From the NCBI GenBank assembly GCA_030593145.1, contig JAUVHU010000005.1:1502-65501 (forward strand): DNA of 64,000 bases. The letters are read 5' to 3'. Under the pieces are notes generated by a model. That model did not search any database and was not told the origin of the DNA. It was given only the letters and a program-made list of their open reading frames with translations. The translations under genes were made by a program, and so were the position numbers. The stretch comes from Desulfobacteraceae bacterium (GTDB lineage Bacteria > Desulfobacterota > Desulfobacteria > Desulfobacterales > ETH-SRB1). Of this stretch, positions 2,145-38,300 are shown piece after piece (the stretch's first letter is position 1; every line of letters starts with the position of its first letter).

Positions 2145-4862
2145 ATGGCTTTTTTTAAATCAGAGATGTTGCATGGTAAATTTCTTATGCTTCGAGACCT
2201 TTACAAAACGCTCCTTTTTAGCGCTATCCTCGAAATATTCAATATATTCCTCCGGTTAATCTGCCTGAGGCGGACACCTTTCATGTCTGCGTGCAACGCA
2301 CAGGCAGGCTTAAACTTGAGTCCCGCTTTTAGCGGGAAACATTTTTCAAAGGTCTCCCTTCTTATTTTAACCGCATGGCTTATTTTGTTGCCTGTTTCAG
2401 GAAGTTCCGCCGTAGAAGCTGAATATTACAGTGTTCATGTGGCTTCGTATAAAAACTTTAATGATGCCGCAGCGCTGAGCAATAGCCTGAAAACTCAGGG
2501 TTATGATTCTTTCTGCAAAACAGTGAATATTCCGAAGAAAGGGAAATGGCGTCGTGTGTTTATAGGAAGGTATAAGAACAGAGGCAAGGCATTGAAGGCT
2601 GGGAGAAAGTTGGTAAAAAAAAGGGTGATTAAGAATTTTATAATATTAAAAACCAAACCTGAAAATAAAAGAGCCGTGCCGCGCGGGAACGGAGAGGATG
2701 GGGAAATCTCCATTATTTCGGTTTTGGCAAAAAAGAAAATGGATTTGCTAAACAGAGAAGAGGCTGGGCAACCAAAAGAGGATGGTTCTTTGGAAGCTGT
2801 TAAAGAGGGAATGGATTCGCCAAGCACAGAAGAGGTTACGTTATCCCATAAAGAGGTTGTGCCACCCCATAAAGAGGTTGTGCCACCCCATGCAGATATA
2901 GAACTGAAGGTGGACGTGAAACCGTATGACAGCGCCATGAACGATTTTATGTCTGGAAAATACGAAGACGCTTTAAGCAAATTCAAAGAGATAGTTGAAA
3001 CTGAAAAGAATGAAACCGTGATGAGGCGCATAGCTGATTGTTACTACTTTTTAGGGAAAAAGGGGGATAAACGGCATGTCTCAGAAGCTATTGATCAATA
3101 TAGGAATATCATCCGAAACTATCCAGGTCTAAACAAGGAAAATGCGCAGGCCATTTACAGGATTGCCGAAAGTTACAGCCGTTTAAATTTTCATTACGAA
3201 GCGTTAATGGAATTTAAAAATCTCTGTTCAAAATATCCTGAATCAGACTACATGCCGGAATCTTTATACATGACAGGCAAAATGTATTACAAAACAAATA
3301 AATTTGGCGAAGCCATTAAGAAGTTTAAAGAATACATAAAAAGATTTCCAGACGGCAAACGTGTCAGAGACGCATATTTTGGCGTGGGGGATTGCTATTC
3401 TCAGATGCGCCAATTTAATGACGCTGATGTCTGGTATGATAATGCTTTGAAAAAGTGGCCTGCCATGGAAGATATTCCGGAAAATACTCTTTTGAAGTTG
3501 GGCTCGCATTACTTTCAAACCGGAAAATATGACAGAGCTCTGGACTTTTTTTTTGTTTGTCTGAACCTGTTTCCAGACGGCAAACATTGCAGCGATACTC
3601 TTTATAAGGTTGCCCGTTCCTTTGAGGCAATGGGACAATTGCGCAGTGCCCTTAAGGCGCTGAGTTTGGTGGTTGAACGGTATCCTGGCAGCGTGGAAGC
3701 TCAAAATAGCGCGCTCATTATGGCGAATATCGGGGTTAAAGATCCGAAAATAAAATTGCCGCTATATATTCTTCCAGGAATGGATTATTATGTAGATCCG
3801 ATCGAGACATACGAAAAAATGGCGGGAAAATTTTCTGATCTTGATATGGAGCAAGAGTTAATATTTCGTAAAGGAGATGCCCTGATAAAAGGAAGAAAGT
3901 ATCGGGAAGCGTTTGATAATTATTCTTTACTGGTGGATAGATTTCCTTATGGAACGTATAAAAAAGCAGGCGAGAAAAAACTTGTATTAAGCACAGGCCG
4001 CCTGGTTGACGATTACTATTCAAAGGAAGACTATATCGCTGTTTCGGATGTGTATTTTAATTCCGACAAAGCGGTTCTGCTTAAGAACGGCGATTTTGAT
4101 ATGTTGCTTAAAATTGGGAAGAGTTTGAAGGAAATGGGTTTGTTAGACCATGCGGCCGGATTCTTAGGGGAAATGATTGGTGTATTTGGAAAGGATAAAA
4201 GGGTAAGCAGGCTTTTGCTTGACATGGCGGAAATTGATTATGACAGGGGTTATTATGAAGATGCGAAAAAGAGATTAAATGAGCTGCATGGAAATCGGTT
4301 GGGAAAGGATAAAAGCACAGCGATTATTGCCACGAAGCTGCTTGGAGATATTTCTTACAAAGAGGGGCTTTTAAAAGAGGCTGCCGGCTTTTACTCGAAA
4401 GTTTTGGGTCCCGAATCAGAAATTGAAGATAGTGCGGCTGTTCGTGAAAAGTATGCTGATTCACTGAGAGAGATGGGCCTGTATTCATCTGCCATGATAA
4501 ATTATAAGAGGGTTCTGAAAAATTGCGACAGCGGTGCACAAAAATGTTTTGCACCTGTGATTATGGATTCTTACGAGGGTTTGGGAGATTGTTTGTATAA
4601 TAAAGGGAAGTATCAGCAGGCGATTCCGATGTATGAACGGTCTTTGGAGAGCGCTTCCGAAGGTGAACAAAACATGTGGACACTATTCAATATAGGGCGG
4701 GGATACGCAAATCTTGGTAATAAGTCTATGGCTGATAAATCCTTCAATTCATTAAAAGGAAAAGAAGGCGATGGATTTTGGTCGAGAATGGTGGATTATT
4801 ACGTGGCAGATAAAGACTGGACTGATAAATATGGGGCATATATTGAGGGATTGAGGAACTGA
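2145..4862 (+). CDS. SPOR-domain plus TPR-repeat protein (probably membrane-anchored or periplasmic).
   Basis: 905-aa ORF. A hydrophobic anchor (LLILTAWLILLPVSG) is followed by a SPOR-like segment (YSVHVASYKNFNDAAALSNSLKTQGYDSF..RRVFIGRYKNRGKALKAG) and then many TPR-like repeats. The 5' end overlaps repeat motifs, so the true start is uncertain. Confidence 0.75.
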   Translation: MAFFKSEMLHGKFLMLRDLYKTLLFSAILEIFNIFLRLICLRRTPFMSACNAQAGLNLSPAFSGKHFSKVSLLILTAWLILLPVSGSSAVEAEYYSVHVASYKNFNDAAALSNSLKTQGYDSFCKTVNIPKKGKWRRVFIGRYKNRGKALKAGRKLVKKRVIKNFIILKTKPENKRAVPRGNGEDGEISIISVLAKKKMDLLNREEAGQPKEDGSLEAVKEGMDSPSTEEVTLSHKEVVPPHKEVVPPHADIELKVDVKPYDSAMNDFMSGKYEDALSKFKEIVETEKNETVMRRIADCYYFLGKKGDKRHVSEAIDQYRNIIRNYPGLNKENAQAIYRIAESYSRLNFHYEALMEFKNLCSKYPESDYMPESLYMTGKMYYKTNKFGEAIKKFKEYIKRFPDGKRVRDAYFGVGDCYSQMRQFNDADVWYDNALKKWPAMEDIPENTLLKLGSHYFQTGKYDRALDFFFVCLNLFPDGKHCSDTLYKVARSFEAMGQLRSALKALSLVVERYPGSVEAQNSALIMANIGVKDPKIKLPLYILPGMDYYVDPIETYEKMAGKFSDLDMEQELIFRKGDALIKGRKYREAFDNYSLLVDRFPYGTYKKAGEKKLVLSTGRLVDDYYSKEDYIAVSDVYFNSDKAVLLKNGDFDMLLKIGKSLKEMGLLDHAAGFLGEMIGVFGKDKRVSRLLLDMAEIDYDRGYYEDAKKRLNELHGNRLGKDKSTAIIATKLLGDISYKEGLLKEAAGFYSKVLGPESEIEDSAAVREKYADSLREMGLYSSAMINYKRVLKNCDSGAQKCFAPVIMDSYEGLGDCLYNKGKYQQAIPMYERSLESASEGEQNMWTLFNIGRGYANLGNKSMADKSFNSLKGKEGDGFWSRMVDYYVADKDWTDKYGAYIEGLRN
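2847..2888 (+). repeat. In-frame 21-nt tandem duplication (HKEVVPP x2) inside the SPOR/TPR gene.
   Basis: CATAAAGAGGTTGTGCCACCC is repeated twice back to back. Confidence 0.9.
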
Positions 4863-5024
4863 AAAAAATGAACATTGAACACCCGCCGTGCTCGCGCACT
4901 GTCGCGGCAGGTCGAACGTTCAACATCGAATTTTGAATAAGGAATTTTGCCAATTTATAAACTGGCAGAGCGAAGCGATTTCATTATTCGACGTTCGATG
5001 TTCGATGTTGGACGTTTATCTTTT
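4862..5024 (+). repeat. Family A long-stem intergenic element, copy A1, with a nested GC-rich insertion at about 4880-4912.
   Basis: AAAAAAATGAACATTGAAC..TCGAACGTTCAACATCGAAT .. GAGCGAAGCGATTTCATTATTCGACGTTCGATGTTCGATGTTGGACGTTTATCTTTT. The arms are complementary. The upstream gene's TGA stop lies in the element's leading CTGAAAAAAATG. Confidence 0.85.
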
Positions 5025-5035
5025 AAAAGGAGCTT

Positions 5036-6382
5036 GTGAATAATTTGGAGAAGGCAACGAAGTGCGGGCCTGACCTGTCTGCGTGCGACGCACAGGCAGA
5101 GAAAAACCCATTCTTACAACAATCGTTTGAGAGTTTTGATCGGGCAACCATGAGGCTGCAAAAGGCTTTTGCCGATCTGGAAGAGAAATTTGAGGCCATA
5201 AACAAGGAGTTGGATTCCAAAAATATTGAATTGCAAAAAGCTCTGGCAGAGAAAGAAAAGATAAGCAGTTATCTTCAGAATATCATCGAGAGCCTTACGA
5301 CCGGTGTGATCGTGGCGGATCTGGAAGGAAAAACTACGATGATGAATCGGTTTGCCGAGGCGTTTACCGGGTTTTTGAGAGAGGATGCCGTGGGGGTAAA
5401 TGCAAATTTACTGTTTGAAAATAGATTCCCATCTGATCAGGAAGGGCACTTTGACCTCAAACATTTTGATGGCGGTGTGGGAGAAAAAATAAGATTGAAA
5501 GGAAGGAAATTAGAAATTTTTGCTTCTGCCGTCAAAACAGAGAATGATAAAGAAATAGGAATGGTTATTGTTCTTCGCGATATTACAAGACTTGAGAAAC
5601 TGGAAGAAAGGGTGAAGAGGACGGAAAAACTTGCTGCAATGGGTGAAACAGCGGCGAGTATTGCTCACGAAATAAGAAACCCCCTGGGGAGCATAGGGCT
5701 TTTAGCTTCTTTATTGATAAAGGAGCTGAAAGAGAAAAAGAACCGTGATAGAGCATCTCATATCATAAGCGCTGTAAATGATATGGACAATAAAATATCC
5801 AATCTGCTTATGTTTGCAAGAGATCAAAAGCCGTTGATGAAGGAAGTCAGCATCCATAATCTGCTTAAAGAAATTATAATTTTTTCCGAACAGATTCTCG
5901 GGAAAGAGAATATCATTCTTACTGTAAACTATGAAGATGTTGATCCTGTAATTGTCGGCAATGCCGAGATGTTAAAACAAGTATTTTTGAATCTTATGCT
6001 GAATGCCATGCAGGCGATGCCTGGTGGAGGAAATCTTTATATTAAAACGCGGATTTCCGGTGGCAATGATGAAAAAAAGAACTCTCTCAATCCAAACGTA
6101 GAAATCAGTTTTATGGACACAGGTAGCGGAATACCTGATGAAAACATAAAAAAGATATTTGATCCCTTTTTTACAGCAAAAGAGAAAGGCACGGGTCTTG
6201 GTCTTGCTATTGTTCACAATATTGTTGATATTCACGGTGGTTCGATAGATGTAGAGAACAACAAAGGTGGCGGGGCTGTTTTTAATATTACATTTTCTGT
6301 AACAGGGATCAGTGGCCGGGGGGCAGAACCCCGACTTTCGATTATGGAGAGCTATGAAAACAAAAACGATCTTAGTTGTTGA
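5036..6382 (+). CDS. Sensor histidine kinase (PAS-like, HisKA, HATPase), FlrB/FleS/NtrB-like partner of the downstream sigma54 activator.
   Basis: H-box AASIAHEIRNPLGSI; ATPase boxes LNLMLNAMQAM, DTGSGIP, GTGLGLAIV. The GTG start has AAGGAG only 3 nt upstream, so the start is uncertain. The 5' end contains a GC-rich repeat motif (5069-5101). Confidence 0.85.
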   Translation: MNNLEKATKCGPDLSACDAQAEKNPFLQQSFESFDRATMRLQKAFADLEEKFEAINKELDSKNIELQKALAEKEKISSYLQNIIESLTTGVIVADLEGKTTMMNRFAEAFTGFLREDAVGVNANLLFENRFPSDQEGHFDLKHFDGGVGEKIRLKGRKLEIFASAVKTENDKEIGMVIVLRDITRLEKLEERVKRTEKLAAMGETAASIAHEIRNPLGSIGLLASLLIKELKEKKNRDRASHIISAVNDMDNKISNLLMFARDQKPLMKEVSIHNLLKEIIIFSEQILGKENIILTVNYEDVDPVIVGNAEMLKQVFLNLMLNAMQAMPGGGNLYIKTRISGGNDEKKNSLNPNVEISFMDTGSGIPDENIKKIFDPFFTAKEKGTGLGLAIVHNIVDIHGGSIDVENNKGGGAVFNITFSVTGISGRGAEPRLSIMESYENKNDLSC

Positions 6383-7742
6383 CGATGAGCCTTCAATGAG
6401 GATCGCTCTTTCCGAATCTCTGGAGAGTTGCGGATATAAAGTCGAAGTATCAGAAAGTGGTGCTGATGCTCTTGAAAAATTTCAGGAGGATAAATTTGAA
6501 GTGGTTATAACCGACATGAGGATGCCAGGGATGAGTGGCATGGATGTCTTGCGAGGCGTTAAAAAGGTTTCTTCCAAAACTCCTGTTGTCGTTATAACGG
6601 CTTACGGTACGGTCAATACCGCAGTTGAAGCTATGAAAGAAGGGGCCGCGGATTTCCTTATGAAGCCGTTTTCAATAGATCATCTGGAATTGCTTGTTAA
6701 AAAAGTGGTAGCTGAAAAAGAAGGAAAGGAAGAGTGTGAATCAAAACATAAGGTAAAGAAATGCTTGTTCAGGGAAAAAACGATTATTACAGAGAACAAA
6801 AAAATGCTTGCCCTTCTAGAGTTGCTGAAGAGTGTGTCGAGAAGCAAATCAAGCATTTTGATACAAGGAGAAAGTGGTACTGGGAAGGAACTGGTTGCCC
6901 GGTATATACACCTTCACAGCGGCAGGGCAGATATGCCGTTTGTGGCGGTAAATTGCGCGGCTATTCCTCACAATCTTCTTGAGAGCGAAATGTTCGGACA
7001 TGAAAAGGGCGCATTTACTGGTGCGTCCAGAATGAGGCTTGGTAAATTCGAATTAGCCAATGGCGGAACATTGCTGCTGGATGAAATCAGCGAAATGGAT
7101 GTTCAGCTTCAGGCGAAACTCCTTCGAGTTATACAGGAATCTGAAGTCGACAGGCTGGGAGGCAAGGCATCTATTCCTATAGATGTTAGAATAATTGCCA
7201 CAACAAATGCAGATTTAAAGAAATATATTGATGATAAAAAGTTTCGGAAAGATCTCTATTATCGTTTGAATGTTATACCTGTGAACATTCCTCCTCTGAG
7301 GGAAAGAAAGGGGGACGTGCTGTTACTCTGCGGACATTTTATGGAAAAGTACAGTCGGCTCGGTGGGACAGCTATGCCAGTGTTGTCGAAGGAAGTTGAG
7401 CAACTGCTTGAAAGTTATAACTGGTCGGGCAATGTAAGGGAGCTGGAAAATGTGATTGAGAGGGCGGTACTGCTGTCCGGGGGGGGGACGATCCTGCCTG
7501 AACATCTCTATCTGGAGAGTGAAGGCGAGAGGCACAGACAACCGGCGGAAGCATCGTTAAAATCGGTCGTCTCGGAAGATGCTACGTTAAAGGAGATGGA
7601 AAAAAGACTTATATTTAAAACTCTGGAGAAGGCGGAAGGAAACAAAACCAGGGCGTCAGAAATTTTAGGCATAAGTGTGCGGACTATCCGGAATAAACTT
7701 AATGAATATAAGAAGGATGTGCAAGCGCTTGATGCGGGCTAA
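6354..7742 (+). CDS. Sigma54-dependent response regulator (REC, AAA+, Fis-type HTH), FlrC/FleR/NtrC-like.
   Basis: [23 protein letters not shown] (REC); GESGTGKE and GAFTGA (sigma54 interaction); C-terminal [17 protein letters not shown] (HTH). The internal ATG 6354 with a GGAGA SD is preferred over the ORF-track start 6312. Confidence 0.9.
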
Positions 7743-7945
7743 GGGACTGAAAAAAATGAACATCGAACATCGAACGTCCAACATCGAATGTTGAATAGGA
7801 AAAGCGGTATTGGGTGTTTGTTTTTTTATTCGATTTTAGAATAATTTGAGGAGCGGAGCGACATCATTATTCGACGTTCAATGTTCGATCCGCCGGAGGC
7901 GGACAAGTGCTTGCTCGCCTGTGGCGAGTTGGACGTTCATCTTTT
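7743..7945 (+). repeat. Family A element, copy A2, with a nested GC-rich insertion at about 7890-7928.
   Basis: GGGACTGAAAAAAATGAACATCGAACATCGAACGTCCAACATCGAATG .. AATAATTTGAGGAGCGGAGCGACATCATTATTCGACGTTCAATGTTCGAT[CCGCCGGAGGCGGACAAGTGCTTGCTCGCCTGTGGCGAG]TTGGACGTTCATCTTTT. It starts right after the TAA at 7740-7742. Confidence 0.9.
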
Positions 7946-7996
7946 AAGAGGTCAGGGGGGTCTTTCCCGTTGATCAGGGTTTGATGCCATGCGTTT

Positions 7997-8012
7997 TGGT
8001 ATAAGTATTGCA
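7997..8012 (+). promoter_or_regulatory. Sigma54 promoter of the flgB operon.
   Basis: TGGTAT-AAGTA-TTGCA with correct GG/GC spacing, about 135 nt upstream of the flgB ATG. A FlrBC-like pair is encoded just upstream. Confidence 0.6.
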
Positions 8013-8040
8013 TAAAATATAGTATTAATTAAACAGCATA

Positions 8041-8090
8041 AGATGAATTCGTAAAAAGCTATATTATGTTGTTTTGCGATACTGCAACCG
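8041..8090 (+). repeat. Family G element in the presumed flgB 5' UTR.
   Basis: GATGAATTCGTAAAAAGCTATATTATGTTGTTTTGCGATACTGCA. An inverted copy lies at 1801-1860, and the related palindrome lies at 28769-28826. Confidence 0.8.
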
Positions 8091-8145
8091 AAAACAACTT
8101 GTCAATCATATCAAAAGGTTATATTTTAATTAAAGGAATATTATT

Positions 8146-8487
8146 ATGGATGCGTTATTTGGTAAAACCATAGAAATGTTGTCTGCTGTTTTGGATTTTC
8201 GATCGGAAAGGCATAAGGTGATAGCCTCAAACATCGCAAATATAGATACTCCAAACTACAGGCCAAAGGATATTGTTTTCAAAGAAGAGCTGAAAGCCCT
8301 TATCAGCAATGAATATGGGGCAACGATTGGTAAAGTCGATTACGAGGTAATCGATTCAGGAGAAAAGGTAAACCTTGACAGTGAAATGGCAAAACTGGCG
8401 GAAAACAATCTTATGCATAATCTTACAGTAGAGCTGCTGGCAAGAAAGTTCAGGGGTTTGAATACTGTTTTGAGGGAGGCAAAATAA
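8146..8487 (+). CDS. flgB: Flagellar basal-body rod protein FlgB.
   Basis: 113 aa. The N-terminal rod motif is SNIANIDTPNYRPKD. It is the first gene of the canonical flgB-flgC-fliE order. Confidence 0.9.
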   Translation: MDALFGKTIEMLSAVLDFRSERHKVIASNIANIDTPNYRPKDIVFKEELKALISNEYGATIGKVDYEVIDSGEKVNLDSEMAKLAENNLMHNLTVELLARKFRGLNTVLREAK

Positions 8488-8488
8488 T

Positions 8489-8899
8489 ATGGAATTCATG
8501 TCATCTTTTCGGGTTTGCGCTTCGGGGCTTGCAGCCCAGAGGGCAAAAATGGACGTTATTGTATCGAATCTTGCTAACATTAATACAACGCGTACGCCTG
8601 AGGGTGGGCCGTACAAAAGAAAAGTCATTATTTTTTCTTCTGAGCCGATAGGTAGTTTTAATGATATTTTGCGAATGGTAAAGGTAGAAGGCATTACGGA
8701 AGAGAAAGAGAGCATAAGGAAGGTTTTTGATCCGAATCATCCCGATGCAGACTCAAAAGGCATTGTGGCTATGCCTGACATAAATACGGTTGCTGAAATG
8801 GCAGATATGATTACTGCGAACAGGGCGTATGAGGCTTGCGTTACCGCATTCGATACAACAAAAAATATGGCGCTTAAGGCGCTGGAACTTGGGAAATAA
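8489..8899 (+). CDS. flgC: Flagellar basal-body rod protein FlgC.
   Basis: 136 aa. Motifs are SNLANINTTRTPEGGPYKRK and a C-terminal MITANRAYEA. Confidence 0.95.
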   Translation: MEFMSSFRVCASGLAAQRAKMDVIVSNLANINTTRTPEGGPYKRKVIIFSSEPIGSFNDILRMVKVEGITEEKESIRKVFDPNHPDADSKGIVAMPDINTVAEMADMITANRAYEACVTAFDTTKNMALKALELGK

Positions 8900-8914
8900 A
8901 GGAGACGTTTAAAG

Positions 8915-9217
8915 ATGAACGATATGTTGATTAGGGGCGATTTGATACCCCCAATTTCAGATACTCCTGGAGAAAGCAGTAAAGTCGGGAAAAACGCGAG
9001 TTCTTTTAGCAATGTTTTGAAGGACAAAATCGGGGAAATCAACAAACTTCAATTAGATGCCGATGCTGCTATCGCAAAAGTGGAGCTCAGTGACTCAGGG
9101 AGTATTCATGAGGCAATGATTGCCATGGAAAAGGCAAGTATTTCCTTCAAGACAATGTTGCAGGTAAGGAACAAGATGTTAGAAGCCTATCAGGAAGTCA
9201 TGCGGATGCAGGTGTAG
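8915..9217 (+). CDS. fliE: Flagellar hook-basal body complex protein FliE.
   Basis: 100 aa. The C-terminal FKTMLQVRNKMLEAYQEVMRMQV is typical of FliE. Position after flgC fits, and there is an AAGGAG SD. Confidence 0.9.
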   Translation: MNDMLIRGDLIPPISDTPGESSKVGKNASSFSNVLKDKIGEINKLQLDADAAIAKVELSDSGSIHEAMIAMEKASISFKTMLQVRNKMLEAYQEVMRMQV

Positions 9218-9268
9218 AGGTCAGGGATCGAGAGATCAGAGGTCGGAGGTCAGAAGTCGGAGAATCAG
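9217..9268 (+). repeat. Family B G-rich word arm (GGTCAGRGG / GGAGGTCAGAAGTCGG), single arm.
   Basis: GAGGTCAGGGATCGAGAGATCAGAGGTCGGAGGTCAGAAGTCGGAGAATCAG lies directly after the fliE stop. No complementary arm is nearby. Confidence 0.85.
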
Positions 9269-9296
9269 CAACCAGCAAACCCCTTGAAAGGAATAT

Positions 9297-10877
9297 ATGG
9301 ATTCGGTATTTCAATTTTTATCTCAGTCAGGGAAGGTCTTTAAATCATTAACCCCATCGAAAAGATTATCTATTCTTGTTGTCGCTGTCATTACTCTAAT
9401 TAGCATAGTGGCATTTGTCGTTTTTGTAAATCAGAAAGAATACAGAACGCTTTTTTCCAATCTTTCTACTGAGGATGCAGGAGAGATTGTTGCTGTATTG
9501 CAGGAAAAAAAGATTCCCTATAAGGTATCTTCTGCTGGCGATTCCATATTGGTTCCTGCTGAATATGTTTCTGAATTAAGACTCGACCTGGCCGCTTCAG
9601 GGATGCCCGGAGGCGGGGTGGTGGGCTTTGAAATATTTGACACCAAGAATTTCGGGGTTACAGATTTTGTACAGAAGCTGAATTATCAAAGAGCGCTCCA
9701 GGGTGAATTATCACGCACAATCACCGGCCTGGATGAGATTAAACATAGCAGGGTTCATATCGTAATACCTAAGAAATCACTTTTTGTTGAAAAACAGGCA
9801 AAACCGACCGCTTCGGTTATTATAAAACTAAAAACAGGCAGGAAGCTGCGGGCATCTCAGGTAGAAGGTATAGCCTCTCTCGTGGCTGGTAGCGTGGAAG
9901 GGCTGAGTCCTGAAGAGGTAATGATAGTTGACAGCGGAGGAAATATTTTGTTAGCGGTGAGAAGCGGGTCTCAATTGTCGAAGCGGACAGATTCACAAAT
10001 GGAATTTCAGAGAAATGTAGAAAAGAATCTGGCGAACAGGATTCAAACCATGCTGGAAAAGGTGGTGGGAGAAGGAAAGGTTGTGGCAAGGGTTTCCGCT
10101 GTTCTTGATTTTAGAGTGATGGAAAAAACAGAGGAATCCTACGATCCTGAAGAACCTGTTGTGAGGAGTCTGCACCGCAGGAGCGAAAAGTCGAGCGTAC
10201 CTGTCAGTGGAGGAGAAAGTACTGTCACCTCTACCAGAGGATTGAGTACAAAATCCTATGGCACAGATCATGAAAAAACGGATGAAATAGTCAATTATGA
10301 AATAAACCGGGTTATCAGCAAGACCGTAATGCCGGTAGGGGAAGTGGAAAAATTGTCAATGGCTGTGCTGGTAGATGGAGTTTATAATAAAAATGATAAA
10401 GGTGTTGAAGAGTTTCAGCCAAGATCGAAAAAAGAGATAGAGACTCTGGAAAGCCTTGTTAAAAGGTCGGTTGGTTTTGATGCCAAAAGGGGCGATCAGA
10501 TAGTGGTAACCAGCATCCCTTTCAGAAAAATTGAATTAGAAATGGGGCCTGCTGAGGGGGAGGGCTGGAAGGCTAAATTACATTTAATTATTCCGTTCAT
10601 AAAATATTTTGTTTCATTAATTGTTCTTGTATTTGTTTTGTTTTTTATTCTGCGTCCTTTAATCAATTTCATTACGACAAAGGACGTGACCGAAAAGATT
10701 GTCGCAGAGGGATTGCCTTCTGCTGGAGTTGATAAGTTGCCAATTAAAGATATTTCGTTGGATATTGGAGGAGAGATAGATGAAAGTCTCAGAGGCCTGG
10801 ATGCTGTTAGGGGTCTGGCCAGTCAGGATGCCAAGAGCTTTGCGGAATTATTGAGAAACTGGCTCAGGAAAGGATAA
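9297..10877 (+). CDS. fliF: Flagellar MS-ring protein FliF.
   Basis: 526 aa with an N-terminal TM and a C-terminal TM (IIPFIKYFVSLIVLVFVLFFIL). YscJ/FliF-like segment: LDLAASGMPGGGVVGFEIFD..QRALQGELSRTI. Confidence 0.95.
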   Translation: MDSVFQFLSQSGKVFKSLTPSKRLSILVVAVITLISIVAFVVFVNQKEYRTLFSNLSTEDAGEIVAVLQEKKIPYKVSSAGDSILVPAEYVSELRLDLAASGMPGGGVVGFEIFDTKNFGVTDFVQKLNYQRALQGELSRTITGLDEIKHSRVHIVIPKKSLFVEKQAKPTASVIIKLKTGRKLRASQVEGIASLVAGSVEGLSPEEVMIVDSGGNILLAVRSGSQLSKRTDSQMEFQRNVEKNLANRIQTMLEKVVGEGKVVARVSAVLDFRVMEKTEESYDPEEPVVRSLHRRSEKSSVPVSGGESTVTSTRGLSTKSYGTDHEKTDEIVNYEINRVISKTVMPVGEVEKLSMAVLVDGVYNKNDKGVEEFQPRSKKEIETLESLVKRSVGFDAKRGDQIVVTSIPFRKIELEMGPAEGEGWKAKLHLIIPFIKYFVSLIVLVFVLFFILRPLINFITTKDVTEKIVAEGLPSAGVDKLPIKDISLDIGGEIDESLRGLDAVRGLASQDAKSFAELLRNWLRKG

Positions 10878-10889
10878 AGGAAAAATTGT

Positions 10890-11897
10890 ATGGGCATGAC
10901 GAAAGAAGAAAAGGCGGCGGTGCTCCTTTTGTCTTTGGACGAAGAAGTGGCGGCAGATGTAATGAGAAATCTCTCACCGGATGAGATCAGACGTGTCGGA
11001 AAATGTATGAGCGGGTTAAGCGGGGTGGCGAATGAAGATGTAGGAAGTGTTGCCAGGGAATTTTGCTCGCTTGCCGAGGAAAAAGGGAATAGAATCATGT
11101 CTGTTCAAGGTAGTGTTGTCGAAAGCATTGTATTGAAAGCATTGGGAGAAGTTAAGGGAAAAGAGGTCTTAAAAGTAATTGAAGATGGCAGCTTTTTAAT
11201 GGAGAGTCCAGTTATTGAAAATTTGAGGAATACAGATACACAGATATTGATTGATGCCACAAAGACGGAACATCCTCAGACCATAGCCCTTATACTGGCG
11301 CATCTTAGACCGGAACAGACATCTGAAATTATGGAACAATTTCCACCTGATAAGCAAGAAGAGATAGCAAGGAGGATCGCGACACTTGGAAGCGTTCCGC
11401 GTGAGTTTATGGAGGATATGGCTAAAACGCTTGAATCGGAAATGGTTGCAGAAAAAGATCGTGGAGAGCAAATTGGCGGAGTTAAGATGGTTGCGGAGAT
11501 TTTGAACAGGATGAGCCGATCAAATGAAAATAGAATTTTAGAATCATTTGAAAAGTCAAATGCGGATTTAGCGGCTGATATCAGAAACCTCATGTTTACT
11601 TTTGATGATATTTTCAAGTTAGATGACAGGAGTATGAGAATATTGCTTGAGGAGATAGATCGTGAAGTTTTGGCCATTGCTATCAAAATAATTGACAGTG
11701 AAATGAGAGAAAGGATTTTTAAAAATATGTCAAAGCGTGCCGGTGGAATGCTAAGGGAAGATATAGAGGTTATGGCCCCCAAAAGACTGTCAGAAGTTGA
11801 AAAAAGCCAGAAAACGATTATTGATACCGCAAAGAGACTGGAAAGTGAAGAGAAGATAACAATAACAACTGGCGGTGAAGATGATGTATTTGTCTGA
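10890..11897 (+). CDS. fliG: Flagellar motor switch protein FliG.
   Basis: 335 aa. Motifs are EEKAAVLLLSLDEEVAADVMRNLSPDEIRRV and the conserved MFTFDDI. Confidence 0.95.
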   Translation: MGMTKEEKAAVLLLSLDEEVAADVMRNLSPDEIRRVGKCMSGLSGVANEDVGSVAREFCSLAEEKGNRIMSVQGSVVESIVLKALGEVKGKEVLKVIEDGSFLMESPVIENLRNTDTQILIDATKTEHPQTIALILAHLRPEQTSEIMEQFPPDKQEEIARRIATLGSVPREFMEDMAKTLESEMVAEKDRGEQIGGVKMVAEILNRMSRSNENRILESFEKSNADLAADIRNLMFTFDDIFKLDDRSMRILLEEIDREVLAIAIKIIDSEMRERIFKNMSKRAGGMLREDIEVMAPKRLSEVEKSQKTIIDTAKRLESEEKITITTGGEDDVFV

Positions 11898-12588
11898 TTC
11901 CAATAAAGTTGTCAAGGCGCAGGACATTAAACTCACGAATTCGAGTGGAAAAGCGCCGGTTCGTTTTATTCGGGGCATTTCCCATATTCCGGCAAATGAA
12001 GCAGATTTTAATGTTCGTGAAAATGGCATGAATATCGGTTCTGAGATTGAGGAGCCCGGGAAACAGGTAGAGGAAATAATAAAGATTACAGAAAAAGAAG
12101 CCTATGACAGAGGATTTTCGAAAGGAGTAACAGAGGGGATAAATAAGGAAAAGAGGAAACTGGCTCTTGCCGCAGAATCTGTTGCGAAATTGATCGGAGA
12201 ATTAAAAGTACTGAAGGAAGAATTTCTAAAAGACTCTGAAAAGGAAATAATCGATCTTGTTTTTTTAATAGCCGGCACTGTTATACATAAGGAAGTGAGT
12301 ACAGGCAGGGAAGTTCTTCTTTCCGTTCTTAGCGATGCGATGAGAAATATACAGGAGAGGGATGATGTCAGTATCCGCTTGAACCCTGAAGATCATCGTT
12401 ATATAACAGAGGCAAAACCCGATTTCCTCGATAGTTTCGGCAATATATTGATTGAGAAGGACAAAGAAATTGGTCAGGGCGGGGCGGTGATAAAGACACT
12501 TTTTGGGACACTTGATGCCAGGCTGGATCAGCAGTTAAATAAGATCAGGGAGCAGGTGTTAGGGGGCGGGGTGGAGTTTCACAGTTAA
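11875..12588 (+). CDS. fliH: Flagellar assembly protein FliH.
   Basis: 237 aa. It sits between fliG and fliI and has the E/K-rich coiled region plus a FliH-like C-terminal half. The last ~15 codons (KIREQVLGGGVEFHS) lie in the left arm of a family B hairpin. Confidence 0.8.
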   Translation: MKMMYLSDSNKVVKAQDIKLTNSSGKAPVRFIRGISHIPANEADFNVRENGMNIGSEIEEPGKQVEEIIKITEKEAYDRGFSKGVTEGINKEKRKLALAAESVAKLIGELKVLKEEFLKDSEKEIIDLVFLIAGTVIHKEVSTGREVLLSVLSDAMRNIQERDDVSIRLNPEDHRYITEAKPDFLDSFGNILIEKDKEIGQGGAVIKTLFGTLDARLDQQLNKIREQVLGGGVEFHS

Positions 12589-12634
12589 CGGTTCCGGAAA
12601 CCCCTGACCCCCGACCCCTGATCTCCGATTCCTG
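12543..12634 (+). repeat. Family B hairpin spanning the fliH stop codon.
   Basis: The left arm is GATCAGGGAGCAGGTGTTAGGGGGCGGGGTGGAG. The right arm is CCCCTGACCCCCGACCCCTGATCTCCGATTCCTG. Confidence 0.8.
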
Positions 12635-12645
12635 AAAACATAAAC

Positions 12646-13953: not shown

Positions 13954-13957
13954 GGAA

Positions 13958-14105: not shown

Positions 14106-14137
14106 AAATGAACCCTGAACCGCTGAACGGTTATCAT

Positions 14138-14599: not shown

Positions 14600-14607
14600 T
14601 GTGAAAA

Positions 14608-15210: not shown

Positions 15211-15246
15211 TAAAAAGTATGCATTTCTACGCAGGAGCGTGGGAAC

Positions 15247-27692: not shown

Positions 27693-28769
27693 ATGGCTGA
27701 AGAAAATAAAGATCAGGAAAAGACCGAGCGCGCCAGTCCTAAGAAACGAGAAAAGGCGCGAAAGAAAGGTCAGGTTGTAAAAAGCAGGGAGATTGCGTCT
27801 GTGGCGGTTCTGCTGGTCAGCCTGGCTTTCTTCTGGTTTGGTTCTTCAGCTATGTTTGATAAGATGATGGCTCTTACAAGGTGGTTGATTACCGAGTCCA
27901 GCCAATTCAATGTTAATTATAACAATATCCAGGGTCTTTCAGTCGGTATTGTGTATAAAATTTTCGCCATGCTTTTTCCTCTTCTTTTGGCTGCATTCTC
28001 AATGGCTTTGTTTGCTAATTACGTTCAGGTTGGTTTTGTGCTTTCTTCAGAATCAATGCAGCCGAAACTCTCAAAAATTGATCCGATCAAGGGACTTCAA
28101 AAGTTGTTTTCCATCAAAGGCCTTGTGGAGCTGGTGAAGAATATATTTAAGATTTCGCTGATCGCTTTCGTTGTTTATGTGACTATTAAGGGGGAAATAG
28201 ACAATTTTATTCCATTGATGGACCAGAGCGTGTGGGGAATATTGATTTACATTGGAGAGGTTGCATTCAAGATTATTCTCAGAGTTTGTTTAGCGCTTAT
28301 AATCCTTGCAGTTTTAGATTATATTTATCAGAAGTGGGAATTTGAAAAAAATCTTAAAATGTCAAAGCAGGAGGTAAAGGATGAATTCAAGCAGACAGAA
28401 GGTGATCCTCTTGTAAAGGCAACAATAAAGCGTCTTCAGAGGGATGCTGCCAGAAAAAGAATGATGGCAAGTGTTCCTGAAGCGGATGTGGTTATAACAA
28501 ATCCTACCCATCTCGCCGTTGCGCTTTGCTATGATCAGGCAAGCGCGTCTGCTCCCAAGGTGGTAGCTAAAGGGGCTGGTTTCATAGCTGAGAATATAAA
28601 AGAAATCGCCATAAAAAACAATGTGTCTATTATTGAGAACAAGCCGCTGGCACGAGTATTGTATAAGAATGTTGATGTGGATGAGATAATACCGGAAAAT
28701 TTGTACAAGGCGGTTGCTGAAGTACTGGCATTTGTTTACAGCAAGAAGAATAGTCGAGTAGTTAAATAA
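27693..28769 (+). CDS. flhB: Flagellar export switch protein FlhB.
   Basis: 358 aa. The autocleavage motif is VVITNPTHLAVAL. The C-terminus is APKVVAKGAGFIAENIKEIA..LYKAVAEVLAFVYS. Confidence 0.95.
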   Translation: MAEENKDQEKTERASPKKREKARKKGQVVKSREIASVAVLLVSLAFFWFGSSAMFDKMMALTRWLITESSQFNVNYNNIQGLSVGIVYKIFAMLFPLLLAAFSMALFANYVQVGFVLSSESMQPKLSKIDPIKGLQKLFSIKGLVELVKNIFKISLIAFVVYVTIKGEIDNFIPLMDQSVWGILIYIGEVAFKIILRVCLALIILAVLDYIYQKWEFEKNLKMSKQEVKDEFKQTEGDPLVKATIKRLQRDAARKRMMASVPEADVVITNPTHLAVALCYDQASASAPKVVAKGAGFIAENIKEIAIKNNVSIIENKPLARVLYKNVDVDEIIPENLYKAVAEVLAFVYSKKNSRVVK

Positions 28770-28826
28770 GATGAATTCGTAAAAAGTCAAAAAAGGTGGT
28801 TTTTCGGACTTTTTACGAGTTCATCA
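28769..28826. repeat. Family G palindrome (19-bp stem) directly after the flhB stop.
   Basis: GATGAATTCGTAAAAAGTC - AAAAAAGGTGGTTTTTCG - GACTTTTTACGAGTTCATC. Confidence 0.9.
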
Positions 28827-28827
28827 A

Positions 28828-28920
28828 TAGTTGAGTGGTTGAATCATTAAATAATTGAGCAGTTAAAATAGTCGAGTAGTCGGGTGGTTAAATGGTTGAG
28901 GATTGCGACCACTTGACGAA
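28828..28920. repeat. Family C left-arm-type words running into the annotated flhA 5' end.
   Basis: AGTTGAGTGGTTGAATCATTAAATAATTGAGCAGTTAAAATAGTCGAGTAGTCGGGTGGTTAAATGGTTGAGGATTGCGACCACTTGAC. Confidence 0.8.
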
Positions 28921-31024: not shown

Positions 31025-32147
31025 AAGATATGATGCGCTGAGTATAAATGAGGCTATGCAGAAGATAAAGGCGGATATGGGCCGGGATGCCATAGTGCTT
31101 TCCAGCAGAAGGCTGAATGGCAGGCTTGAGGTGGTTGCCGCGAGGGATGATAATTATGAAATTCTAAAAGAAAGTGAAGTTGAAAAATGCGAAAAAGAGG
31201 AATCAGATACTTTTTCCATAATCAGGTCGGATGTTAATGAGTTGAAGTCCTTTATTAAGGATTTCAAAAAGCAAGGGGGTGTTTATGCCGAGCTGACTGA
31301 GATAAAGGAGACAATGAGCCTTCTGTTTGATGTTCTTGGCATTCAAAATAATGGAAGAATTTCTTCTCCTCTGTCAAAAGTTTATTATCACCTGATTTCG
31401 ACAGGCGTATCGAAACAACGGGCTTGCGCATTAATAGAGGAGTTGAAGAAGGATAGCCGGGCGGAAGATCCGGATAATTATCATTATACTCTATCTGCTG
31501 TTGAGAATATGATGAAACGATCTATTACTTCTTCTTATAGGAATACGGGGAAAAAGAGGGTCTCCGTCTTTGTCGGTCCCGCGGGTGATGGGAAAACAAC
31601 AACCCTGGCAAAGCTGGCAGCGCGCTGTTTATTCGGAGATAAATTAAATGTAGGTATCATAACAATGGATACATATCGGATAGGCGCGGTGGAACAACTG
31701 AAAAGATATGCTGATATCATGGGTGTTCCCATGGAAGTTGCTTCTGAAAAGAAGGAGTTAGAGAGAGTTTTGAATAAGTTTGCCGACAAAGATGTCGTAC
31801 TGATAGATACGCCGGGGAAAAGTCGTGGTGATGAAAGTTATTTATTGAAATTGAAGAAATGTTTTACGATGGGTCTTTCCATGGAAACGAATCTTGTTTT
31901 AAGCATGACGTCAAGCCAGGAAAGCATGATGGATGCTGTAGCGAGATTTGGTGTTATAAATTATAATAACATTATATTTACTAAGCTGGATGATTCAAAA
32001 AAATTCGGTTCAATTTACAATGTTATTGATCATGTCGGTAAACCGGTGTTCTACGTTGCCAATGGACAAAATGTTCCTCAGGATTTAAATAAAATGGATC
32101 CCGCAAAGCTTGCAAGGCTGATAGTTGGAACAGGGATCAGGAGTTAG
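31014..32147 (+). CDS. flhF: Flagellar SRP-like GTPase FlhF.
   Basis: The N-terminus is MQIKRYDALSINEAMQKIKADMGRDAIVL. The GTPase motifs are GPAGDGKTTT, DTPG and TKLDD. The last codons (GTGIRS) are encoded by a family B arm. Confidence 0.9.
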   Translation: MQIKRYDALSINEAMQKIKADMGRDAIVLSSRRLNGRLEVVAARDDNYEILKESEVEKCEKEESDTFSIIRSDVNELKSFIKDFKKQGGVYAELTEIKETMSLLFDVLGIQNNGRISSPLSKVYYHLISTGVSKQRACALIEELKKDSRAEDPDNYHYTLSAVENMMKRSITSSYRNTGKKRVSVFVGPAGDGKTTTLAKLAARCLFGDKLNVGIITMDTYRIGAVEQLKRYADIMGVPMEVASEKKELERVLNKFADKDVVLIDTPGKSRGDESYLLKLKKCFTMGLSMETNLVLSMTSSQESMMDAVARFGVINYNNIIFTKLDDSKKFGSIYNVIDHVGKPVFYVANGQNVPQDLNKMDPAKLARLIVGTGIRS

Positions 32148-32238
32148 GGATCAGAGGTCAGGGATCAGGGGGCAGGGATCAGAGAACAGGGGAAAGGCGT
32201 AACCGGCTGATCCCCGATCCCCGAAACCTGATCCCCTG
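32131..32238. repeat. Family B hairpin spanning the flhF stop.
   Basis: CAGGGATCAGGAGTTAGGGATCAGAGGTCAGGGATCAGGGGGCAGGGATCAGAGAACAGGGG - AAAGGCGTAACCGG - CTGATCCCCGATCCCCGAAACCTGATCCCCTG. Confidence 0.9.
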
Positions 32239-33269: not shown

Positions 33270-33992
33270 ATGACTGATAAAAAAAAACGCGAGAAACTGA
33301 TAATTAAATATGTGCCTCTTGTTAAGAATATTGTCGGCAGGATTGCCTTGAGACTTCCCGATCATGTGGACACGGATGATCTGATCAGCGCCGGTATAAT
33401 AGGATTGATGTCGGCTCTGGAGAAATTTGACGAAACAAAGAAAGTGCGGTTTGAAACATATGCGCAGTTCAGGATCCGTGGGGCCATATTGGATGAATTA
33501 AGAGCGAGAGACGATGCGCCCAGATCGGTTAGAAGCAAAGAAACGATGCTGAAAGATACACTTGATGTGTTGCGGAAAAAGTTCGGACGTCATCCAACGG
33601 ATGAAGAAATTTCGCATTATCTTGGTATATCACTTAACAATTATTATAAATTTCTTGATGAAGCAAGGGGTGTCCGCATCCTGAGCAATGATGATTTACC
33701 ATCGAGCTACTGTGAAAAATACGGCAGGCATGATGTGTTGGAAAAAATTGATCAAAACAATCCTTTTTTCCTTCTTGCTAACAGAGAACTTAAAAATATA
33801 TTGAAGAATGCAATAGATTCACTTCCCGAAAAAGAGAAACTGGTGTTGTCTCTCTATTATTATGAGGAGTTAACATTAAAGGAAATAGGACTGACATTGA
33901 AATTGACGGAATCAAGAATTTGTCAGATCCACTCCCAGGCAATACTGAGACTAAAGGGCAGCTTGAAAAAAATCAGATATGACATTACTTAG
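33270..33992 (+). CDS. fliA: Flagellar sigma factor FliA (sigma28).
   Basis: 240 aa. Region 2 is LISAGIIGLMSALEKFDETKKVRFETYAQFRIRGAILDELR. Region 4.2 is ELTLKEIGLTLKLTESRICQIHSQAILRLK. Confidence 0.9.
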   Translation: MTDKKKREKLIIKYVPLVKNIVGRIALRLPDHVDTDDLISAGIIGLMSALEKFDETKKVRFETYAQFRIRGAILDELRARDDAPRSVRSKETMLKDTLDVLRKKFGRHPTDEEISHYLGISLNNYYKFLDEARGVRILSNDDLPSSYCEKYGRHDVLEKIDQNNPFFLLANRELKNILKNAIDSLPEKEKLVLSLYYYEELTLKEIGLTLKLTESRICQIHSQAILRLKGSLKKIRYDIT

Positions 33993-34992
33993 ACAAATTG
34001 TTGCCGGATATTATAAAAGGGTGCTGATGGCCGTATGTCTGTGTATTGTGCTGTTTGCAGTCGGCTGGTTTATCAGGGGTAATGGGTCGGGGTCATGGGT
34101 CATCAAGGGTCAGGGATCAGGGATCAGGAGTCAGGGGTCAGGGATCGGGGGGCAGAAGTCAGAAGTTGGAAGTCAGGAGTCGGAGGCCGGAAGTCAGGAG
34201 TCGGAGGCCGGAAGTCAGGGGTCGGAAGTCAGATATCAGATGTCGGAAGTCAGAGGTTGGAAGTCAGAAGTTGGAAGTCAGGAGTCGGAAGTCGGAGGTC
34301 AGGAGTCGGAAGTCGGAAGTCAGGAGTCAGAAGTTGGAAGTCAGGAGTCGGAGGTTGGAAGTCAGGGGTCGGAAGTCAGAGGTCAGGGGTCGGAAGTCGG
34401 AGGTCAGGAGTCGGAAGTCGGAGGTCAGGAGTTGGAAGTCGGAGGTCAGGAGTCGGAAGTTGGAAGTCAGAGGCCGGAAGTCAGAAGTCAGGAGTCGGAA
34501 GTCGGGGGTCAGGAATCGGAGGCCGAAGGTCAGGGGTTGGAAGTCAGATATCAGATGTCGGAAGTCAGAGGTTGGAAGTCAGAAGTTGGAAGTCAGGAGT
34601 CGGAAGTCAGAGGTCAGGAGTCGGAGGCTGGAAGTCAGAGGCCGGAGATCAGAGGTCATGAGCCAATAGGTTCTGTAAAGAAAAGTTTGCCGGTGACTGC
34701 TTCCATGGAAGAACGGTTTGAATATTTTAATGATTTTATTGTTCATTTAAAAGGTGATCGCAGGAAAGACAGAGTGCTGATTTGTGATGTGGTTATTGAA
34801 CTGAATCAAGGGATGAAACTGCCGCAAAAGAGGATTGAGTTGAGAAAGGTCATATATAATACATTGAAAAAACTTTCGGGGTTGTCTGAAATCAAAAGAG
34901 GATTAAAAGAAAAAATTAAAAGCAGCTTGAATAATTTTATGGATGATGAAATAATAAAAGATGTGTACTTTGCTAGGTTTGTTTTATTGTAA
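33979..34992 (+). CDS. FliL-family paralog with a ~195-aa acidic heptad-repeat spacer between the TM helix and the FliL-like domain.
   Basis: TM VLMAVCLCIVLFAVGWFI is followed by about 27 heptads (GSQESEV / GGQESEV ..). The C-terminus FNDFIVHLKGDRRKDRVLICDVVIEL..LRKVIYNTLKKL..LKEKIKSSLNNFM..IKDVYFARFVLL aligns by eye with the FliL at 22998. The start overlaps the fliA stop by 14 nt. Confidence 0.65.
   Translation: MTLLRQIVAGYYKRVLMAVCLCIVLFAVGWFIRGNGSGSWVIKGQGSGIRSQGSGIGGQKSEVGSQESEAGSQESEAGSQGSEVRYQMSEVRGWKSEVGSQESEVGGQESEVGSQESEVGSQESEVGSQGSEVRGQGSEVGGQESEVGGQELEVGGQESEVGSQRPEVRSQESEVGGQESEAEGQGLEVRYQMSEVRGWKSEVGSQESEVRGQESEAGSQRPEIRGHEPIGSVKKSLPVTASMEERFEYFNDFIVHLKGDRRKDRVLICDVVIELNQGMKLPQKRIELRKVIYNTLKKLSGLSEIKRGLKEKIKSSLNNFMDDEIIKDVYFARFVLL
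34074..34660 (+). repeat. Expanded family B repeat (21-nt period, higher-order ~315-bp duplication) inside the FliL paralog. It is stop-free in all three + frames.
   Basis: GGAAGTCAGGAGTCGGAAGTC-type units. The ORF track shows three overlapping + ORFs (33979, 34046, 34095). GTCAGATATCAGATGTCGGAAGTCAGAGGTTGGAAGTCAGAAGTTGGAAGTCAGGAGTCGGAAGTC occurs twice (about 34225 and about 34540). Confidence 0.95.
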
Positions 34993-35799: not shown

Positions 35800-35890
35800 G
35801 GATTTAGGGATTGGGAAATTGAGGGATTGTGGAATTAAAATCAATATAATACATTTAATTCCCAAATTCCTAAATTCGCAATTAAGCGAA
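35799..35890. repeat. Family E hairpin (core GGAATTAAAATCAATA, tail AATTAAGCGAA).
   Basis: GGATTTAGGGATTGGGAAATTGAGGGATTGTGGAATTAAAATCAATATAATACATTTAATTCCCAAATTCCTAAATTCGCAATTAAGCGAA. Confidence 0.85.
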
Positions 35891-37815: not shown

Positions 37816-38102
37816 ACAAAGACAAAAGAGAGACAACAATTGCCGCCGCTCTAAAATATGACGGAAACAGTAATTCGGCGCCGAAGGTTACAGCGAGGGG
37901 AAGAGGCGCCATTGCTGAAAAGATTATAGAACTTGCAAAAAAACATAAGGTGCCGATAAAGGAAGATCCGGCTTTGGCACAGATCCTGAGCCGGCTTGAT
38001 ATAGATGAACAAATCCCTTCTGAGCTTTACAAGGCCGTTGCTGAAATCCTGGCCTTTGTTTATTCAATCAATGAACGGTACAGGGAGCAGGGAAAAAGAT
38101 GA
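37812..38102 (+). CDS. Stand-alone FlhB C-terminal (CC subdomain) homolog, YlqH/EscU-C-like, without an NPTH site.
   Basis: AALKYDGNSNSAPKVTARGRGAIAEKIIELAKKHKVPIKEDPALAQILSRLDIDEQIPSELYKAVAEILAFVYS aligns residue for residue with FlhB 28520-28745 (ALCYDQASASAPKVVAKGAGFIAENIKEIA..LYKAVAEVLAFVYS). Confidence 0.85.
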   Translation: MNKDKRETTIAAALKYDGNSNSAPKVTARGRGAIAEKIIELAKKHKVPIKEDPALAQILSRLDIDEQIPSELYKAVAEILAFVYSINERYREQGKR

Positions 38103-38300
38103 ACATCGAAGATCGAACGTCCAACATCGAATGTTGAATGGGAAAAGACAAGAAAAAAATGAACATCTAAAAAAAAACAGAAATAGCTGTTGAATGTTCG
38201 GTATTGGTTTTTCATTCGATTTTAGAATAATTTGAGGAGCGGAGCGACATCATTATTCGATGTTCGACGTTCAATGTTCGATGTTGGACGTTAATCTTTA
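38092..38300 (+). repeat. Family A element, copy A5. It supplies the TGA stop of the FlhB-C-like gene.
   Basis: AAAAAGATGAACATCGAAGATCGAACGTCCAACATCGAATGTTGAATGGGAAAAGAC.. GGTATTGGTTTTTCATTCGATTTTAGAATAATTTGAGGAGCGGAGCGACATCATTATTCGATGTTCGACGTTCAATGTTCGATGTTGGACGTTAATCTTT. Confidence 0.9.

Follow-up and report, generated by a model that had tools for sequence, protein, structure and literature searches.

Palindrome-bounded elements in a Desulfobacteraceae flagellar gene cluster: probable relics of a cassette resembling rRNA intervening sequences

Intervening sequences (IVSs) without an open reading frame (ORF) are found in the rRNA of Salmonella, Yersinia and Campylobacter, where they form stem-loops of ~100-150 nt in the transcript and are removed by RNase III. 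The IVS of Coxiella, in comparison, is 428 nt long, carries an S23p ORF in sense orientation that is decaying, shows tandem heptamers (GACAGAT) in varying number ahead of this ORF, and is bounded by an inverted-repeat stem that is cut by RNase III; the origin and the mobility of rRNA IVSs are unexplained (PMC4990558, which also gives background on the ORF-less type). The protein family, PF05635, was first found inside 23S rRNA IVSs. It has been reported to resemble Avd, the accessory protein of diversity-generating retroelements (DGRs), and it is the Pfam domain that most often adjoins DGR reverse transcriptases (PMC10053308). Here we describe family A, a group of repeated elements of which five copies lie in a flagellar gene cluster on 64,000 nt of DNA from a Desulfobacteraceae bacterium (assembly GCA_030593145.1, contig JAUVHU010000005.1, positions 1,502 to 65,501; the whole stretch is called the window). 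These elements are probably ORF-less, internally deleted relics of a palindrome-bounded, IVS-like cassette encoding a four-helix-bundle protein, a selfish element inserted in sense orientation in operons.

Small palindromic repeats that are co-transcribed with operons, such as the Correia elements of Neisseria, enterobacterial ERIC/IRU, REP/BIME and MITEs (miniature inverted-repeat transposable elements), have stems that can serve as substrates for RNase III and can influence how stable an mRNA is. Like family A, they measure 100-200 nt, have inverted repeats at their boundaries, lie between genes in many copies, and are mosaic and nested. However, they are thought to derive from insertion sequences or RAYT-type transposases, often show target duplications, and are not known to have a sense bias like the 34:2 reported below, whereas family A derives from a four-helix-bundle gene cassette. 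The TAACTGA repeats of Beggiatoaceae, cyanobacteria and Bacteroidetes are tandem intergenic 7-nt units that vary in 7-nt steps and mostly lie forward-oriented immediately upstream of start codons, and their phylogenetic distribution suggests horizontal spread (PMC4679880). These repeats and the cyanobacterial short tandemly repeated repetitive (STRR) sequences are direct arrays, predicted to be unstructured and with no associated ORF, unlike family A, in which two complementary heptamer arrays pair to form a hairpin that encloses a gene or what is left of one. We found no description in the literature of PF05635 cassettes in operons or of such repeats in Desulfobacterales, and the arm and core strings did not occur in the papers searched; the nearest described phenomena are the rRNA IVSs and the oriented TAACTGA heptamer repeats.

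Window copies and the full-length cassette

The five window copies are 148-209 nt long, share one orientation and lie between genes of the flagellar cluster on the + strand, as do nearly all genes at 1-60 kb of the window (Table 1). The original prediction, made from the letters of this DNA, had reported five co-oriented copies at these positions and in this gene context, and it is borne out by the sequence and by the Pfam assignments of the neighbouring genes. A 35-nt right-hand block (AATAATTTGAGGAGCGGAGCGACATCATTATTCGA) is exact in A2 to A5, where shuffled sequences lead one to expect none, and the core of A1 is a diverged variant, GAGCGAAGCGATTTCATTATTCGA. A search with the stem 17-mer TTCGATGTTGGACGTTC and its complement, allowing up to three mismatches, gave 20 matches against 0.18 expected; all were within the five copies, and no sixth copy was found in the window. 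The arms consist of tandem 7-nt units, ATCGAAC or GTCCAAC on the left and GTTCGAT or GTTGGAC on the right. The TGA stops that the element had been said to supply in two cases are present in A1 and A5, and the division into two loop subtypes, A2/A5 and A3/A4, also holds. Of the left block described as common to the five copies, A5 lacks the GGGACTG start.

We scanned the contigs of one genome per species with the core GAGCGRAGCGAYDTCATTATTCGA and obtained at least 117 stretches; loci on the contigs of other genomes are given L numbers here. Within the 330 nt upstream of each core match, many copies preserve the 3' terminus of a gene (...EELIKIFVTSIKTAEKKKK*), and some contain that gene in full. 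The full-length form, present in L010, L208 and others, is a cassette of ~0.5 kb that is abundant in Desulfobacterales. Its left arm, AAAAGATGAAC followed by three to five ATCGAAC/GTCCAAC units, leads into a short purine-rich leader, a 121-aa four-helix-bundle gene, a 3' untranslated region (3'UTR), and a right arm complementary to the left one. Thus in L010 the stop codon of lepA is followed by AAAAGATGAAC and the heptamers, the purine-rich leader, the 121-aa ORF, AATTAAG with the core, the complementary heptamers with GTTCATCTTTT, and finally the Shine-Dalgarno motif and start of leuC. The 40-nt core block in the 3'UTR, which holds GAGGAGCGGAGCGAC and whose 3' half (CATCATTATTCGA) is the complement of the left-arm end, is optional: L120, L198, L203 and L206 have the ORF and the arms without it.

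The cassette ORF matched Pfam PF05635, "23S rRNA-intervening sequence protein" (2.5e-13), TIGR02436 (4.8e-24) and PDB entry 2rld (3e-16). Among 120 core matches, seven had near-full ORFs, 90-100% identical at the amino acid level across species, about ten had 3' remnants of 17-54 codons, and the remainder were ORF-less. For 11 distinct full-length ORFs, dN/dS was 0.09 at a dS of 0.54, and this purifying selection indicates that intact copies encode a working protein. We found no promoter or transposase belonging to the cassette itself, and no transposase adjoining the ORF-bearing copies at four sites with gene calls. Unlike the Avd genes of DGRs, the cassettes examined had no reverse transcriptase, template repeat or variable repeat beside them. 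The core motif was absent from IMG/VR, and the full cassette from the GenBank phage and PLSDB plasmid sets.

Alignment of L208, L010 and A1 to A5 with MAFFT showed that the window copies consist of the 5' ~100 nt (left arm with leader) and the 3' 100-170 nt (3'UTR/core with right arm) of the cassette, the ORF of ~360 nt having been deleted from all five. A2 retains part of the cassette 3'UTR (CGGTATTGGGTGTTTG...ATTCGATTTTAG), while in A5 the lost ORF has left its final four codons and its stop (AAACAGAAATAG, 38175-38186) together with the 3'UTR. Many ORF-less copies elsewhere read ATGAAGAAACAGAAATAG, in which the ORF start (MKKQ) is fused to its end (KKQK*) across AAGAAACA, a direct repeat present at both ends of the ORF. 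No four-helix-bundle ORF was detected in the window by tblastn; the predicted lack of coding potential therefore describes the window copies correctly, but not the family, whose full form bears an ORF. The copies are ORF-deleted derivatives of a four-helix-bundle cassette and not the stand-alone RNA motif, selected at these sites, that had been proposed.

Table 1. Family A copies and other repeat features, in window coordinates
Feature	Position	Strand	Description
A1	4862-5024	+	Probable ORF-less cassette relic between the TPR/SPOR protein gene and the PAS histidine-kinase gene; host stop TGA (4860-4862) in left end; diverged core 4968-4991
A1 nested mini-hairpin	4881-4911	+	GC-rich, in left arm; extra block seen in no other copy
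A2	7743-7945	+	Between the sigma-54 response regulator gene (stop TAA 7740-7742) and flgB; core 7840-7874
A2 nested hairpin	7890-7928	+	39 nt, GC-rich, CCGCCGGAGGCGGACAAGTGCTTGCTCGCCTGTGGCGAG, inside right arm
A3	13958-14105	+	Between fliI (stop 13951-13953) and fliJ; core 14038-14072; shortest copy, 5' leader joined straight to core
A4	17245-17420	+	Between fliK and flgD; core 17347-17381; arm and leader duplicated internally
Outer repeat module	17421-17484	+	Directly 3' of A4; CAAAACAAC..TGGAATAAATGCAACCTGTGAACGTTTACAAAATAACTTAGCGTTTATG
A5	38092-38300	+	Between the FlhB-C-terminal-like gene (stop TGA 38100-38102, in arm) and the rod-protein gene; core 38226-38260
Other heptamer/octamer arrays	32127-32236; 25500-25590; 28770-28900; 35801-35877 and 47036-47112
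Other heptamer/octamer arrays, continued	42898-42969 and 43311-43382; 12599-12640; 20194-20235

GC-rich hairpins of ~20-40 nt are nested in the AT-rich arms of A1 and A2 and in those of L047, L051, L080, L100, L074, L081 and L065. L047 and L051 have the 39-nt insert of A2 unchanged and at the matching point of the arm; L080 and L100 have near-identical versions. Two origins are suggested by this: a very small element that targets the arrays, or the spread of a variant that was already interrupted.

Insertion polymorphism and the stem

The 80 stretches listed from the core scan came from at least 46 Desulfobacterales/Desulfobacteraceae metagenome-assembled genomes (MAGs), including Desulfatibia, Desulfaltia, Eth-SRB1 and Eth-SRB2, and among them a single genome held up to at least nine copies. 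At E<=1e-5, a search with the protein gave at least 7,964 clusters. Of the best 120, all but one (67%) were at least 86% identical to the query, and most lay on contigs <2 kb, a pattern typical of multi-copy repeats that break assemblies.

Insertions are polymorphic between close relatives. Family A is absent from the fliI-fliJ, response regulator-flgB and fliK-flgD junctions of L118-L121, the metagenomic relatives closest to this flagellar cluster, whose FliI proteins are 76-83% identical. L064 (88-90% nucleotide identity) has a family A copy at flhB-flhA, and L092 (84-89%) has a variant of the A4 type immediately upstream of fliP; the window carries other hairpins at these two junctions. Since one ORF-less variant occurs at differing sites in related genomes, ORF-less forms must also have been copied, beyond any decay in place. 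We saw no shared target-site duplication at the full-length or window-copy flanks compared, which are A/T-rich and offer no clean empty sites, and no transposase, integrase or reverse transcriptase among the window ORFs scanned. It is therefore the polymorphism and the copy number that lead us to call the element mobile.

The original prediction had suggested an RNA-level role such as 3'-end protection, RNase III processing or intercistronic attenuation. In this view the hairpin would be a host-selected, cis-acting RNA element retained at cistron junctions for 3'-end protection, the stoichiometry of mRNA segments or attenuation of read-through, and the link to the cassette would be historical only. 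The strong sense bias described below is consistent with such a role, as is the finding that every close relative has some heptamer-arm hairpin at fliI-fliJ and at other junctions, though of differing sequence families. The arms (~85% identity, a figure from local alignments that is somewhat inflated) are also somewhat better kept than third codon positions (73%). The predicted RNase III-type duplex was obtained on folding every copy, with 21-36 long-range pairs per window copy and a longest perfect helix of 12-25 bp. However, family A is not conserved at orthologous sites: it is missing at the equivalent junctions of the relatives compared by FliI, and relatives sharing 84-90% nucleotide identity carry it at different flagellar junctions, which argues against an RNA role kept at the site. 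The continuous series of ORF remnants, the many subtypes, the nested inserts and the mosaic structure also speak against host selection.

The stem was examined for a signature of the sense strand. The numbers of G:U pairs in the long stem were similar on the two strands (99 on the + strand and 105 on the - strand), so that the G:U versus A:C asymmetry, used as a test of selection on the sense-strand RNA, gave no signal and the stem offers no evidence of RNA-level selection. For A3, the z of the fold was -4.5 (+ strand) and -6.5 (- strand). Folding energy was 4.5 kcal/mol lower for the + strand, but shuffles shift likewise, and the difference is therefore an effect of composition. When a sense intrinsic terminator was sought, we found merely weak G-T-rich local stems plus CATCTTTT, in A1 and A3. 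A search of Rfam 15, which had been suggested along with the prediction, matched no family at gathering thresholds in the whole window, where it also detected no rRNA, and none even at E<=1 for 4700-17600. Taken together, we regard a host-selected RNA element as unlikely.

Orientation, ends and arms

We called orientation at 117 loci of other genomes with a simple gene caller that takes the longest ORF. Of the copies lying between tandem genes, 42 were sense and 3 antisense; a further 21 lay in convergent and 7 in divergent spacers. After sites with similar flanks had been merged (94 clusters), the ratio was 34:2 (two-sided binomial p ~2e-8); the genes flanking the three antisense copies are real genes. 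All four independent ORF-bearing sites with database gene calls were sense, with the four-helix-bundle gene following fumarase, between an SIS regulator and Fer4-CCG, between T2SSE and T2SSF, and between PFK and GDT1, and the five window copies are all sense to their flanking genes. Co-orientation with transcription is thus general. Because it holds across other genomes, beyond a cluster that runs one way, a classical, randomly oriented MITE scatter is unlikely, as the original prediction had argued. Replication-strand effects would not be expected to yield so strong a bias, given the modest gene-strand skew of such genomes.

The median gap was 53 nt from the upstream stop to the first arm, and 63 nt from the right arm to the next start, and the spacers also carry purine-rich 7/8-mer arrays and an outer inverted-repeat module. 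The position right after a stop codon, proposed as a specific feature, is therefore not one, and in the window it follows from the shortness of operon spacers. A targeting rule of insertion right after the stop was rejected on the same gaps, with other repeat modules often lying between. Translational coupling from a host stop to the ATG of the arm is seen in some copies (A5, L198) but is not general.

For an ordinary MITE, moved at the DNA level by a transposase encoded elsewhere, the bias would have to come purely from the counter-selection of antisense insertions with polar effects. The terminal inverted repeats and the small size fit this explanation, as do the many copies and the polymorphic insertions, and a run of A7-8 at the left end of four window copies (A1-A4) means that the antisense strand has a stem followed by U7-8, which resembles a terminator. 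Such an asymmetry cannot be general, since the ends (AAAAGATGAAC...GTTCATCTTTT) are symmetric in most copies. What the parent element encodes is a four-helix-bundle protein and not a transposase; the terminal repeats of a MITE match those of a transposase-encoding insertion sequence, whereas here the sole relatives with an ORF encode the four-helix bundle. Together with the lack of target-site duplications and of mobility enzymes in the material surveyed above, and with the 34:2 sense bias, this makes a MITE very unlikely.

The core sites of integron attC recombination sites follow the consensus RYYYAAC / GTTRRRY. The units GTCCAAC and GTTGGAC fit it, with matches in nearly every copy, and the ORF cassettes are promoterless and co-oriented, so that the elements could be read as attC-type sites or as cassettes inserted at secondary sites. 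The arms, however, flank the ORF instead of both following it, the stems are perfect, with no extrahelical bases and no unpaired spacer, relatives that lack the element have kept the order of the flagellar genes, and the window ORFs scanned include no integrase. We rejected this reading on architecture (arm placement and bulge-free stems) and consider it extremely improbable.

The left arms of A1-A5 (for example 7756-7794), and 213 arms elsewhere, have an ATG start and are open for ~12 codons; the nested 31-nt insert of A1 leaves this frame open. The arms may therefore be viewed as a translation module, in which the sense (GAACATC)n array and a 12-codon mini-ORF (MNIEHRTSNIE[F/C]*, ending TGA-ATG) would couple ribosomes to the next ORF and the right arm would act as a gating anti-leader. 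Consistent with this, in 79 of the 213 arms the mini-ORF stop adjoins an ATG or overlaps with one (as TGAATG or ATGA), and in the cassette the mini-ORF ends ~10 nt before the four-helix-bundle start. Furthermore, in Mu-like phage contigs the left arm alone, without the right arm or the four-helix-bundle gene, lies 0-60 nt upstream of starts, and solo arms between tandem phage genes were sense in 13 cases and antisense in none. On the other hand, the copies are related by descent, so that the mini-ORF statistics are not independent, a change in heptamer number shifts the frame, 116 of the 213 arms show no coupling, and in the window the ORF that the leader should serve is gone. A translation module is thus quite unlikely to be the basis of family A.

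The phage contigs concerned (L209-L228, from IMG/VR, with transposase, portal, head-morphogenesis and terminase genes) carry a solo left-arm array, AAAAGATGAAC(ATCGAAC)n..GAATTTTGAATG. It is always in the sense of the genes, between genes and near the next start, and has no right arm, core or four-helix-bundle gene; IMGVR_UViG_3300033145_001804 has at least eight solo copies.

A second inverted-repeat pair often encloses family A (17421-17484, L033, L039, L203 and many others). Its left member is CCATAAGCGCTAAGTTGTTTTG... and its right member ...CAAAACAACTTAGCGCTTATGG, with an internal TGTGAACGTTTACA palindrome, and at many other loci the module stands to the right of family A, with its reverse complement to the left. 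The window has the right member only, after A4, and L119 has a short remnant there without family A.

Other spacers of the cluster contain arrays of 7- or 8-nt units (GGGATCA/GGGGTCA, AAAGCTC, GTCGAGTA, GGATTAAG, GGGATTG), often paired with their complement in a hairpin. Since both the window spacers and the L118-L120 junctions bear such hairpins, heptamer-arm hairpins at cistron boundaries look lineage-wide, with family A being one case. At 14106-14140, TGAACCC/TGAACCG heptamers abut the probable true start of fliJ (MFNFRLQ, ~14138), which has no Shine-Dalgarno motif, and L118-L120 have related GTGAACGG repeats upstream of fliJ; these heptamers resemble the TAACTGA repeats just upstream of starts in Beggiatoaceae (PMC4679880). 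A FliL-like ORF (33979-34992) contains in its N-terminal part ~690 nt of in-frame repeats with a 21-nt period (34019-34711), whose units are the GGGATCA/GGAAGTC heptamers that also make up the spacer arrays. A palindromic repeat, GATGAATTCGTAAAAAGTC...GACTTTTTACGA(G/A)TTCATC, occurs in spacers at 28765-28830 and ~8055-8075 and in L064 and L108, and is also nested within the family A copy of L064.

A proposed selfish cassette in operons and its likeness to IVSs

The cassette sits in spacers between host genes, almost always in sense, and we propose that, being promoterless, it would be transcribed by read-through as part of the host operon. Copies lose the ORF, in many cases through deletion between the AAGAAACA repeats at its ends, and ORF-less versions are copied onward to new sites. 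What is left is an element of 150-210 nt, the arms of which are predicted to pair into a near-perfect duplex of 20-45 bp. Such a duplex would be a canonical RNase III substrate, and cleavage is most likely by analogy with rRNA IVSs, excision by RNase III having been demonstrated for the Coxiella IVS (PMC4990558). Cleavage by RNase III would remove the loop and divide the flagellar polycistron at fliI-fliJ, fliK-flgD and the other junctions.

The ORF-containing 23S rRNA IVSs of Leptospira, Coxiella burnetii, Brucella and Xanthomonas resemble the cassette in several respects. Both are ~0.4-0.5 kb long and have inverted repeats that form a long stem, both have an S23p / PF05635 ORF in sense in the loop, and both show variable tandem heptamers near the ORF start and decay of the ORF. 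Family A likewise comprises stem-enclosed loops with or without a sense S23p ORF. The cassette differs in its host transcript, which is the mRNA of an operon (flagellar, pilus or metabolic) and not the 23S (or 16S) rRNA, where IVSs typically occupy helix 25 or 45, in having many copies per genome, and in that the arms themselves are heptamer arrays; all family A copies lie between protein-coding genes. The ORF-less rRNA IVSs sit at fixed rRNA helices, unlike family A; the likeness to them noted here is one of architecture.

Several observations weigh against a purely selfish cassette. The 34:2 orientation bias is without a mechanistic explanation under it, and we found neither a mobility enzyme among the window ORFs scanned nor a target-site duplication or a clean empty site at the flanks compared. 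We infer co-transcription, RNase III cleavage and any effect on flagellar gene expression, and the equal G:U counts fit a DNA palindrome as well as a selected RNA. Different heptamer-arm hairpins occupy the same junctions in the relatives L118-L120, and some hairpin at these junctions could benefit the host. Finally, the solo left arm is a sense leader in Mu-like phage contigs, and the arms may have a translational role.

A more far-reaching version of the cassette hypothesis would make these elements "intervening sequences" of mRNA, a self-propagating class at cistron boundaries that depends on transcription of the operon. RNase III would excise the element, and the Avd-like protein would help a reverse transcriptase acting in trans to copy the excised RNA back into DNA. 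We regard this as a long shot. If true, an RNA-based life cycle would account for the near-absolute sense orientation, and would give the rRNA IVSs and the S23p proteins an origin and a function.

In practical terms, the elements break metagenome assemblies, most matches being on contigs <2 kb, and they displace the apparent stops and starts of genes when Desulfobacterales MAGs are annotated. Where rRNA IVSs and S23p / four-helix-bundle ORFs come from, how they move and what they are for have been open questions since ~1990 (PMC4990558). The Desulfobacterales are a lineage with abundant and recently active copies of an IVS-like element, some with the ORF and some lacking it, in ordinary operons and in strict orientation, and they offer hundreds of natural insertion events for analysis. 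The movement of the cassette, the possible segmentation of operon mRNAs by RNase III, and the role of the four-helix-bundle protein outside diversity-generating retroelements thereby become testable.

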